Positions 49,534-59,628 of a stretch of 64,000 nucleotides of DNA are shown piece by piece. How positions within the stretch are numbered: position 1 is the first letter of the stretch; each line of letters opens with the position of its first letter. This DNA is from Octopus vulgaris. Taxonomy: Eukaryota. The position numbers and the translations under genes are program-made. Location of the stretch: positions 28,520,001 through 28,584,000 of the forward strand of contig OX597828.1 in the NCBI GenBank assembly GCA_951406725.2. Reading direction: 5' to 3'. The notes under the pieces are model-generated. The model did no database searches. It worked only from the letters and a program-made list of their open reading frames with translations, and was not told the DNA's origin.

Positions 49534-52500
49534 TCTATATATGTAAAAGTGAAATTGTATGAGTGTCTGTCTCCTACGATTTAGATTCCTAACTACTCCC
49601 ACATTTTGCGGTGCAGTTTAACGAAATTCGGGTATCTTATAGTCGTGATTCATATCGAGCCCGTCTGGGTATTAGCGCGCGTCTACGATGAGTCTACGAT
49701 TTTAAAATTAAATTAACGTCATTTTTTTCCATTTCTTCCAATTTTTTCGTGTGTCCATGGCGGCGGAGTTGGCGTCCACGCTCACACCTGCACCTGTGTT
49801 GCTTCTCCCCCTTCTTCCCTCCCTCGCAAAGTGTGACTGCGCATGCGCGAACGTGTGACTGCGCATGCGCGAAAGTGTGACTGCGCATGCACGAACGTGT
49901 GACTGCGCATGCGCGAAAGAGTGACTGCGCATGCGCGAACGTATGACTGCGCATGCGCGAAAGTGTAACTGCGCATGCGCAAAGGTCTGACTGCGCATGC
50001 GCAAACGTGTGACTACGCATGCGCGAACGTCTGACTGAGCATGCGCGAAACTGCTACTGCGCATGCGCGAACGTCTGATTGCGCATGCGTGAACGTGTGA
50101 CTGCGCTTGTGCGAATGTGCTACTGCGCATCGCGCGAACGTGTATCTGCGCATGCGCAACACTGCTACTGCGCATGTGGATGGTGGCGGAGTTGGCGTCC
50201 ATGCTCACACCTGCAACTCTGTTAAAGTGTGACTGCGCATGCGCGAACGTATGACTGCGCATGCGCGAACATCTGACTGCCATTGCGCGAAAGTGCTACT
50301 GCGCATGCGCAAACGTGTGACTGCGCATGCGCTAAAGCCTAACTGCGCATGCGCGAATGTCTGACTGCGCATGCGCTAAAGTGCTACTACGCATGCGCAA
50401 AGGTCTGACTGCGCATGCGCAAACGAGTGACTGCGCATGCGCAAACGTCTGACTGCGCATGCGCGAAAGTACTACTGCGCATGCGCGAATGTGTTACTGC
50501 GGATGCGCGAAATTGCTATTGCGCATGCGCAAACGTCTGACTGCGCATGTGCGAATGTCTCACAGCGCATGCGCGAATGTGCTACTGCGCATGCATGAAC
50601 GTCTGACTGCGCATGCGCAGTAGCACATTCGCGCACGCGCAGTCAGACATTCGCGCATGCGCAGTTAGACGTTAGCGCATGCGCAGTCACACGTTTGCGC
50701 ATGCGTAGTAGCACTTTCGCGCATGCGCAGTCAGATTTTCGCGCATGTGCAATCAGACGTTAACGCATGCGCAGTAGCACTTTCGCGCATGCGCAGTCAG
50801 ACGTTCACGCATGCGCGGTCACACGTTTGCGCATGCGCAGTCAGACGTTCCCGCATGCGCAGTTAAACGTTCGCGCATGCGAAGTAGCACATTCGCACAT
50901 GCGCAGTCAAAAGTTCGCGCATGCGCAGTCAGACTTTTGCGCATGCGCAACCAGACGTTCGCGCATGCGCAGAAGCACTTTCGTGCATGCGCAGTCACAC
51001 TCTAACAGAGTTGCAGGTGTGAGCATGGTCGCCAACTCCGCCGCCATCGACACACAAAAAAATTGGAAGAAATAGAAAAAAATTATGTTAAATTATTGCA
51101 CCGCAAAATGTGGGAGTAATTAGGAATCTAAATCGTAGGAAACAGACACAACTTCACTTTTATATTAGTGTGATTGCGTAGTCACACGTTCGCGCATACG
51201 CAGTAGCAGTTTCGCGCATGATCAGTCAGACGTTTGCGCATGCGCAGTCACACGTTCGAGCATGCGCAGTAGCACATTCGAGCATGCGCAGTAGTACTTT
51301 CGCGCATGCGCATTCAGACGTTTGCGCATGCGCAGTCAGACGTTCGCGCATGCGCGGTCACACGTTTGCGCATGCGCAGTCAGACCTTTGCGCATGCGCA
51401 GTTACACTTTTGCGCATGCGCAGTCAGACGTACGCGCATGCGCAGCCAGACGTTTGCGCATGCGCAGTCACACGTTCGCGCCTGCGTAGTAGCAGTTTCG
51501 CGCATGCGCAGTCAGACGTTCGCGCATGCGCAGTCAGACGCTAATACACAGACGCTCGATATGAATCACGACTATAAGATACCCGAATTTCGTTAAACTG
51601 CACCTCAAAATGTGTGAGTAATTAGGAATCTAAATCGTAGGAGACAGACACACAACTTCACTTTTATATAAGTATGAATGCGCACTCAGACGTTCGCGCA
51701 TGCGCAGTCACACGTTCGCGCATGCCCAGTCAGACGTTCGCGTATGCGCAGTCACACGTTTGCGCATGCGCAGTTACACGTTCGCGCATGCGCAGTAGCA
51801 GTTTCGCGCATGCGCAGTAGTACTTTTTATATAAGTGTGATTGCGCAGTCACACTTTCGCGCATGCGCAGTTACACGTTCGCGCATGCGCAGTTGCAGTT
51901 TCGCGCATGCACAGTCACACATTTGCGCATGCGCAGTCAGACCTTTGCGCATGCGCAGTTACACTTTTGCGCATGCTCAGTAGCAGCTTCGCGCATGCGC
52001 AGTACACGTTCGCGGATGCGCAGCCAGACCTTTGCGCATGCGCAGTATCACTTTTGCGCATGCGCAGTTGCAGTTTCGCGCATGCGCAGTCAAACGTTTG
52101 CGCATGCGCAGTAGCACTTTCGCGCATGCGCAGTCAGATGTTTGCACATGCGCAGTCATACGTTTGCGCATGCGCAGTCAGACATTCGCGCATGCGCAGT
52201 TAGATGTTAGCGCATGCGCAGTCACATGTTTGCGCATGCGCAGTCACACGTTTGCGCATGCCCAGTAGCACTTTCGCGCACGCGCAGTCAGATGTTCGCG
52301 CATGCGCAGTCCGACGTTCGCGCATGCGCAGTAGCACTTTCGCGCATGCGCAGTCAGATGTTCGCGCATGCGCTGTCAGATGTTCGCGCATGCGCAGTCA
52401 GACGTTCGCGCATGCATGCACAGTCAGACGTTCGCGCATGCCGCAATCGACACGAAAAAATTGGAAGAAATAGTAAAAAATTATAAATTATTTTTTAAAT

Positions 52501-58744: not shown

Positions 58745-59628
58745 TCTATATATATAAAAGTGAAGTTGTGTGAGTGTCTGTCTCCTACGATTTAGATTCC
58801 TAACTACTCCCACATTTTGCGGTGCAGTTTAACCAAATTCGGGTATCTTAGTCGTGATTCATATCGAGCCCGTCTGGGTATTAGCGCGCATCTACGATGA
58901 GTCTACGATTTTAAAAATAGTTTACCATAATTTTTTTCCATCTTAACGCATATTTTTTCGTGTGTCGATGGCGGCGGAGTTGGCGTCCATGGTCACACCT
59001 GCACCTGTTTTGCTTCTCCCCCTTCTTCCCTCCCTCGTGAAGCTTTGGGGAAGGGAATGTAAGGAAATCAACGTCGTAAAGCGTTGTCAAGGAGACCAGC
59101 GTTCTTTTAGAACAACGACTTCATGGCTTGAAGTCGCCAAAACAGAAATCGCTAAAAAAGCTGAAACAGATCCACAAAAACGGCAAAAACCGCCACACAG
59201 GGCAGGTTTCCTGTGCAAACAATTTGCACAACCGAATGTTTTAGTTGTTGCACAAATCTTTATATATAAAAGTGAAGTTGTGTGTCTGTCTCCTACGATT
59301 TCGATTCCTAACTACTCCCACATTTTGCGGTGCAGTGTAACCAAAACCGGGTATCTTATAGTCGTGATTCATTTCGAGCCCTTCTGGGTCTACGATGAGT
59401 CTACGATTTTAAAAATAATTTACCATCATTTTTCCATTTTAATGCTATTATATAAGGGAAGTAACTCTCAAAAAATGTCTACGATGAGTCAACGATTTAA
59501 AAAAAAATTACTATAATTGTTTTTCCATTTTTAATGCATTTTTTTGCTATTTTTTGGCTATAACTCTCTAAAAATGCTTTATAGTTATTTCCCTTACAAA
59601 CCCGAGCAACGCCGGGCGATACTGCTAG
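58745..59628 (+). mobile_element. Non-autonomous Helitron, array-free copy (884 bp)
   Basis: A|TCTATATATATAAAAG ... CCCGAGCAACGCCGGG-CGATACTG-CTAG|T, with no TSD and an internal duplication of its 5' region near 59260. Confidence 0.9.

Follow-up and report, generated by a model that had tools for sequence, protein, structure and literature searches.

What brings a multi-kilobase array of transcription-factor sites into a transposon, and does such an array serve the genome that carries it? These questions are raised by a locus of Octopus vulgaris that we examined within a window of 64,000 nucleotides (the whole stretch analysed, G000:C15:28,520,001-28,584,000, from an assembly of 2.8 Gb in 227 contigs; plain coordinates below are those of the window). 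At 49534-58740 on the plus strand lies a non-autonomous Helitron loaded with a 22-bp minisatellite, the self-complementary core of which, GCGCATGCGC, is also the exact sequence preferred by human NRF1. The reading that we favour, with a probability of roughly 0.6, is that inverted tandem copies of the element's own 5' end together with the array were generated at this locus, likely after the array folded back at a core and was then amplified locally, and that the repeat is likely a hitch-hiker in the element rather than a servant of the host.

Results

The original prediction for this locus described a non-autonomous Helitron with TC and hairpin-CTAA ends that holds about 280 units of a 22-bp repeat in one phased array. 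Inspection of the ends supports the first of these statements. The 5' terminus TC at 49534 is preceded by A, as is that of the neighbouring copy at 58745, and TC is also found in dispersed copies, while at the opposite end a GC-rich 16-bp hairpin (58713-58728), which folds with DNA parameters, stands 8 bp ahead of a CTAA that ends at 58740 and is followed by T. The presence of A on the 5' side of TC and of T on the 3' side of CTAR, both here and in those dispersed copies of which the ends were inspected, indicates insertion between A and T without target duplication, as judged from occupied sites. The 5' segment (49534-49826, plus strand) corresponds to positions 1-293 of an 884-bp family member, to which it is 92% identical, and the body and 3' end (57911-58740, plus strand) correspond to family positions 171-884, with 2.7 copies of a 99-bp subrepeat at 58390-58663.

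The number of units was likewise well estimated (281 at up to 8 mismatches, 257 of them with up to 5), but their continuity was not: the units fall into 13 blocks covering 6,185 of 8,089 bp, in both orientations and broken up by a fold-back and nine inverted fragments of the Helitron 5' end, which rules out a single continuous phased array. Two forward blocks contain 31 units (49831-50161, plus strand, 13 units and a partial one; 50227-50622, plus strand, 18 units), and the outer end of the left fold-back arm is a piece of the Helitron 5' segment (positions 219-262) that lies between them at 50175-50218 on the plus strand. The other 250 units run the opposite way in eleven reverse blocks (50627-57919, minus strand; 17, 16, 7, 28, 45, 35, 13, 27, 36, 17 and 9 units). 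The switch of orientation falls on a GCGCATGCGC core at 50609-50618, the fold-back being centred at 50613/14 with arms of about 440 bp on each side that are about 80% complementary and in which part of the Helitron 5' segment is mirrored. Nine of the ten junctions between reverse blocks hold an inverted copy of the Helitron 5' end, 132-243 bp long and without TC, so that blocks and fragments make up a higher-order repeat. All nine lie on the minus strand: fragment 1, internally deleted, at 51009-51165; fragments 2 (51539-51670) and 6 (55202-55335), which span positions 7-142; and fragments 3 (52440-52682, with a small internal inversion), 4 (53704-53920), 5 (54678-54895), 7 (55917-56134), 8 (56937-57146) and 9 (57508-57722), which span positions 7-231. 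Exact GCGCATGCGC occurs 194 times in 49534-58740, against about 0.0003 occurrences expected under a Markov model of the flanks. The near-invariance once ascribed to the core is not borne out unit by unit, the 10-mer being intact in just 193 of the 281 units and in 72% of the interior ones. The alternating purine-pyrimidine run measures 12 bp in 206 of the 281.

Two rare bases indicate that the inverted fragments have one origin in the 5' end of the array-bearing element itself. A rare G of that 5' end, in the 49612 region, is common to six of the seven scorable fragments and to one of 110 copies elsewhere; a T is present in all nine fragments and in 3 of 112 copies elsewhere. The fragments differ among themselves by 0.9-10.4%, and with up to 2 mismatches allowed the junction of the higher-order repeat is matched at eight places in the genome, each inside the window. 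Together these data show that a single inverted copy of the element's start arose at the locus and was then amplified in place, and fold-back at a core followed by unequal exchange would be the route to the higher-order repeat. We rejected the higher-order repeat as a mobile unit, its junction having no copy outside the window. The proposal that a multi-kilobase array was distributed by transposition finds no support either: the large size is a local rearrangement that was met nowhere else.

Fold-backs are a familiar artefact of long reads, and an assembler or chimeric reads could have manufactured both the fold-back and the higher-order repeat. Over two rounds of read placement no contig or long read spanned the whole array, and its centre and right-hand junctions were left unbridged. 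However, a 225-bp contig of run X2, a sample other than run X1 (the best match to the locus), covers 51113-51337 with 5 differences and bridges the locus-specific junction 51165/66 at the edge of fragment 1; its depth of 82.5, compared to 14.6 for the left-arm contig, is as expected for a collapsed multi-copy junction. One junction of the locus is present in the DNA of a second individual. Moreover, arms that are just about 80% complementary, and repeat units that diverge as stated above while sharing diagnostic changes, are not the product of read errors. We regard an assembly artefact as extremely improbable.

Whether the core is better conserved than the spacer depends on what is compared. 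Over 255 interior units the majority base reaches 96% at core positions and 79% at those of the spacer, a gap that six polymorphic positions of the spacer account for; its remaining six resemble the core (rare variants at 4.5% against 3.6% in the core, p=0.13), so that the remainder of the unit, originally described as variable, is variable in half of its positions. Homologous monomers compared across blocks (101 pairs at the loosest threshold, those with more than 5 differences being excluded) differ at 6.7% in the core and at 5.9% at the non-polymorphic spacer positions (p=0.6); when all of the spacer is included, the comparison is not significant at two tighter thresholds (p=0.19 and 0.29) and becomes so at the loosest (p=4e-5). 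A tally of variants over 20 loci with at least 8 in-phase units places singletons evenly (108 in the core versus 108 in the spacer) and amplified variants very unevenly (6 versus 62), and with each amplified allele counted once the figures are 4/30 for the core and 18/36 for the spacer (p=0.002), three of the four core alleles being CpG changes. The loci of this tally were chosen by their intact cores, and the search pattern held three positions of the spacer constant as well, yet at two of these amplified variants are still many. Mutation is even across the unit and amplification favours intact cores. CpG transitions are not raised in the cores of the window (2.2% vs 1.5%, p=0.25), whereas at other loci they are raised 2.5-fold (4.3% vs 1.7%, p=1e-6), which implies that some arrays were methylated. 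Single strands of the array fold core to core, with z of about -5 relative to shuffles.

Human NRF1 is described as preferring GCGCATGCGC (Kd 0.3 uM), the bases of which are contacted by R206, N242 and R244, and its dimer as gripping the helix from opposite sides (PMC10810270). The array core is an exact match to this optimum, and the octopus genome contains one PF10491 locus, on C4, with an exon that is 100% identical to an Octopus vulgaris protein and 98% identical to P3A2 of O. bimaculoides and O. sinensis. All three base-reading residues are identical in it (counted along an alignment to 8K3D), which makes it likely that octopus NRF1 binds the array cores in vitro, and the earlier identification of the core as the NRF1/Ewg/P3A2 consensus is upheld. 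NRF1 is a methylation-sensitive factor. Exact 10-mers number 6,911 genome-wide (1,016 for the reversed control), and pairs of them at exactly 22 bp number 1,496 (control 0), so that 1,497-2,992 sites, or 22-43% of the total, stand in phased pairs, not all of which are in Helitrons; the count takes in doublets of an unrelated element with long terminal inverted repeats (6 of the first 50 pairs listed). The ratio found in the loci examined suggests about 2,000 sites in such pairs. The window alone has 194 exact sites (2.8% of those in the genome) and 133 phased pairs. NRF1 is also reported to bind many imperfect sites (PMC10810270, Tables 1-2), and the share of perfect sites therefore overstates the share of binding. 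Octopus transposons are described as mostly unmethylated and satellites as somewhat more methylated (PMC9476566).

The same 10-mer was encountered in other settings. An element of 2.8 kb (L128:2134-4920, at G000:C1:86.83 Mb; also L129-L132) has terminal inverted repeats of 1.25 kb and seems to be flanked by an 8-bp target duplication. Near each of its ends stand two GCGCATGCGC cores at a distance of 22 bp, and the spacer between them matches the minisatellite at 6 of 12 letters; the element may be the source of the monomer or a case of convergent spacing. Two kinds of direct repeat, LTR-like and 2.0-2.4 kb apart (L140:2423 and 4436; L141:2464 and 4901; L142:2524 and 4770), have a single GCGCATGCGC beside CCGGAAG/CTTCCGG, which we take to be an ETS-like neighbour in a pairing presumably like that of housekeeping promoters. 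At L143:3507-3569 (G000:C1:5.27 Mb), two GCGCATGCGC sites flank two CCGGAAGT motifs, presumably also ETS-like, and this arrangement looks like a genuine host promoter.

The 22-mer occurs as a minisatellite dispersed through the genome, where a search with two exact units gave 641 matches (control 0), 100 of them inside the window. Among 35 other array loci, which are the first-listed hits of several pattern searches and a non-random sample (L061 and L067 are probably non-independent), 28 lie within 200 bp of a copy of this Helitron family, in agreement with the earlier proposal that the family spread the repeat. Most commonly, a 5' segment (positions 1-298) is followed, often by way of a palindromic seed of 32 bp, by 5-60 units, and these by a short linker rich in TA and a complete element. 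Such an order of parts would fit read-through capture, by analogy with the 3'-end bypass and capture demonstrated experimentally for Helraiser (PMC4778049). The array of the window is one of the largest seen, and other large ones exist. Two of the seven arrays that have no family Helitron within that distance make higher-order repeats of their own with unrelated spacers. At L074:3820-8925 (G000:C13:50.69 Mb), where no Helitron match was found, nine 22-mer blocks with 113 cores alternate with an AT-rich AAAATTTT-type repeat, and at L133:1-9200 (C18:1-9200, the extreme end of a chromosome-scale contig) the 22-mer, with 207 exact cores and its last block inverted, alternates with a tandem repeat of 152 bp that is akin to a dispersed repeat, and L136 has a related piece. 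At L052, L056, L075 and L127 the array adjoins a second minisatellite, the 11-bp-like CCAAATAGC, inside or beside the element. We also looked for, and rejected, a sister family with a different core that might have been hidden: of the first 100 listed among 148 spacer-anchored matches, 71 have an intact core and the rest have scattered changes, most often a single CpG change.

The parent 884-bp family, with TC and hairpin-CTAG ends, has 5,305 first-look candidates in the genome, and the 40 copies that were scored are 90-95% identical, most of them being full length. A representative follows the array-bearing element across a 4-bp TATA gap (58745-59628, plus strand; 16-bp hairpin at 59601-59616, then 8 bp and CTAG|T). 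The array-free sibling announced at this position does exist with the length ascribed to it, but it is an ordinary copy of this abundant family and not a duplicate of the array element: the two are 88-92% identical, the exact junction between them occurs just once in the genome (one further site at 1 mismatch), which also excludes a travelling companion, and head-to-tail neighbours are frequent, three of 19 other top copies (L005, L017 and L020) sitting directly behind another 3' end. As for autonomous partners, 150 matches to PF14214 were scored for RepHel elements, with open frames of up to 1,744 amino acids, and at 12 of the 17 RepHel loci examined a related 3' end stands just past the frame (83-93% identical over 28-36 bp). 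The five RepHel frames scanned have Helitron_like_N and PIF1 domains and no endonuclease domain; together with TC and CTRR ends in an A|T context, they leave an assignment to Helentrons or HINE unsupported, although subterminal inverted repeats got no dedicated search. Near-identical RepHel matches are clustered at G000:C29:27.64-27.83 Mb and at C7:48-59 Mb, suggesting tandem or recently duplicated autonomous Helitrons, and the many frames of 1,500-1,744 amino acids genome-wide suggest recent activity. An RNA-labelled run, X13, yielded family-wide Helitron contigs that are not placeable at this locus, and no RNA run matching the locus was among those listed.

As to a role for the host, 205 open reading frames over about 94 kb were searched with Pfam, 145 being the longest of the window's 229 and 60 the longest of 188 in 30 kb of DNA nearby; no host exon came to light, short ones possibly having escaped, and the only domains were of the long interspersed element (LINE) type. 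Nor is the 22-bp spacing, which had been proposed as a phasing of about two helical turns, special: at 10.5 bp per turn, 22 bp make 2.1 turns, so that each successive site is turned by about 34 degrees and the series winds round the helix instead of keeping to one face, and the NRF1 dimer in any case grips the helix from both sides. A sponge for RBFOX acting as RNA was considered on account of 248 occurrences of GCATG, presumably together with TGCATG the RBFOX motif, and dismissed, TGCATG occurring just 6 and 8 times on the two strands and no host gene having been detected. The rest of the window has a LINE ORF2 at 60391-63687 (minus strand) with endonuclease, reverse transcriptase and zf-RVT domains, in which one stop splits frames of 760 and 338 amino acids and which is followed in L080 by two zf-CCHC ORF1-like frames; a 66-bp tandem repeat of 5.8 copies (38396-38780); a 290-bp duplication (29583-30183); and a 760-bp TGA microsatellite (45416-46177).

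Discussion

The structure of the locus may be accounted for by a sequence of events in which no host function intervenes. A Helitron 5' end that lacked its own 3' terminator would have been read through a minisatellite up to the next family member, thereby creating the order 5' end, array, full element, and the RepHel proteins of related autonomous Helitrons would have copied this composite to dozens of sites. On a single strand every core can pair with every other, and an array of this kind would slip, flip and recombine; at 50613/14 it may have folded back, with array and 5' end copied in reverse and the resulting unit then amplified some ten times. Provided that it is the monomers with intact cores that get copied, the NRF1 word would be kept without host selection, and binding of octopus NRF1 to cores that are intact and unmethylated is predicted as a side effect.

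Several observations weigh against this account. A matching 5' end was found in none of the 17 RepHel loci, and for 7 of the 35 arrays the nearest 200 bp contain no Helitron of the family, so that the Helitron is not the sole carrier. The same 10-mer recurs in other repeat types, in one of them as a pair of cores again 22 bp apart around an unlike spacer, and this hints at a benefit of the motif to transposons. The search for host exons could have missed short ones. The scarcity of amplified alleles in the core, most of them CpG changes, is explained equally well by NRF1 binding and by pairing-guided slippage without any protein, and the present data separate neither from the other. Our preference for pairing has two grounds: copies without the array are vastly more numerous than those with it, and the flip falls exactly on a core.

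The leading alternative is a selfish one, in which NRF1 bound to the cores opens chromatin and aids nicking, copying or expansion, with selection for intact cores acting on the element rather than on the host. The identity of the core with the human optimum, the retention of R206, N242 and R244 and the avoidance of the core by amplified variants would all follow, as would the recurrence of the motif in three other repeat types (the element with long terminal inverted repeats and its 22-bp doublet near the end, and the two kinds of direct repeat with an ETS-like neighbour); CpG decay is not raised in the cores of the window, octopus transposons are described as mostly unmethylated (PMC9476566), and a similar idea has been discussed for E2F sites in plant MITEs (miniature inverted-repeat transposable elements; PMC7329337). 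Nevertheless, pairing alone predicts the same core bias, the raised CpG decay at other loci means that some arrays were methylated, and the array-free family (5,305 first-look candidates) far exceeds in number the array loci, of which 35 were examined (phased pairs number 1,496 genome-wide), so that the array confers no obvious gain in copy number. We hold this alternative to be possible if unlikely. A stronger version, that between a fifth and two-fifths of the perfect NRF1 sites have been drawn into the minisatellite and that NRF1 binding itself keeps the cores intact and drives their amplification, strikes us as improbable; were it true, the arrays would be a length-variable sink or open-chromatin seed for a main regulator of mitochondrial and housekeeping genes, with this 194-site locus among the largest nodes.

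It is quite improbable, in turn, that the host has co-opted the arrays as enhancers or as a sink that sets the level of free NRF1, in spite of the number of perfect 10-mers in phased pairs (1,497-2,992 of 6,911, and 194 at this locus alone), of the presence of a locus junction in a second individual and of the precedent of Helitron-borne heat-shock elements in C. elegans, which are bound by HSF-1 near induced genes (PMC6927752). The structure is a patchwork of deletions and duplications, the 10-mer is kept in fewer than three quarters of interior units, new mutations strike the core as often as the spacer and show no purifying selection, and only LINE-type frames surround the element, while NRF1's tolerance of imperfect sites (PMC10810270) reduces the share of binding that perfect sites could command. 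The platform or sponge with a host role, as it was originally put forward, finds no evidence here.

Helitron-borne tandem repeats and Helitron-borne clusters of transcription-factor sites are both of a kind already known. The oyster Cg_HINE, a Helitron-type element also from a mollusc, disperses satellite-like arrays (PMC7492417), and the Drosophila DINE has central tandem repeats (as tabulated in PMC9659126); like them, the octopus element is a non-autonomous rolling-circle element that spreads short satellite-like arrays between fixed end modules. It differs from HINE in having canonical TC and hairpin-CTRR ends instead of subterminal repeats, from Cg_HINE in a unit of 22 bp with a palindromic core and in arrays of both orientations with fold-backs, where those of Cg_HINE are described as having one orientation without exception (PMC7492417), and from both Cg_HINE and DINE in that its own 5' end belongs to the higher-order repeat. 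Caenorhabditis Helitrons share with it dense clusters of sites, eight copies holding more than 100, and are credited with 61% of the genome's heat-shock elements, as compared to the 22-43% of perfect 10-mers that are phased at 22 bp in octopus, not all of them in Helitrons; binding and gene induction were measured there, whereas in octopus binding is predicted and no gene was found nearby, and both the factor (NRF1/P3A2) and the phylum differ (PMC6927752). In Brassicaceae, non-autonomous DNA transposons amplified the exact site of another conserved housekeeping factor, E2F, and most of these sites are reported to be bound yet far from promoters, with their regulatory value doubted (PMC7329337, citing Henaff 2014); those MITEs, however, are cut-and-paste elements of plants, and the E2F site is not a folding palindrome. 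The ISX/ISXR helitrons of Drosophila miranda likewise disperse a protein-binding site, that of MSL, but with one site per element, without a tandem array and with a function selected in the host (PMC4384637).

Our literature search, which left most subscription papers outside its reach, found no report of NRF1-site arrays in Helitrons or in octopus. The main text of a 2026 O. vulgaris repeat annotation makes no mention of NRF1, of a motif or of a satellite, although its repeat library or supplements may list the family (PMC13282606), and no mention of Helitron or satellite was met in PMC12988792. By this comparison the novelty lies in the NRF1 core and the large proportion of perfect sites that it accounts for, in the preferential amplification of cores that are intact, and in a fold-back macrosatellite composed of an element's own 5' end.

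Conclusions

The fold-back and the tandem inverted 5' ends record a Helitron turning into a macrosatellite. The same system tests whether sites in an array persist through the binding of a protein or through the copying mechanics of a palindrome, two causes that can be separated experimentally. For cephalopod regulatory genomics, the implication is that as many as two-fifths of the perfect NRF1 sites would go unseen in reads that are repeat-masked or map to several places.

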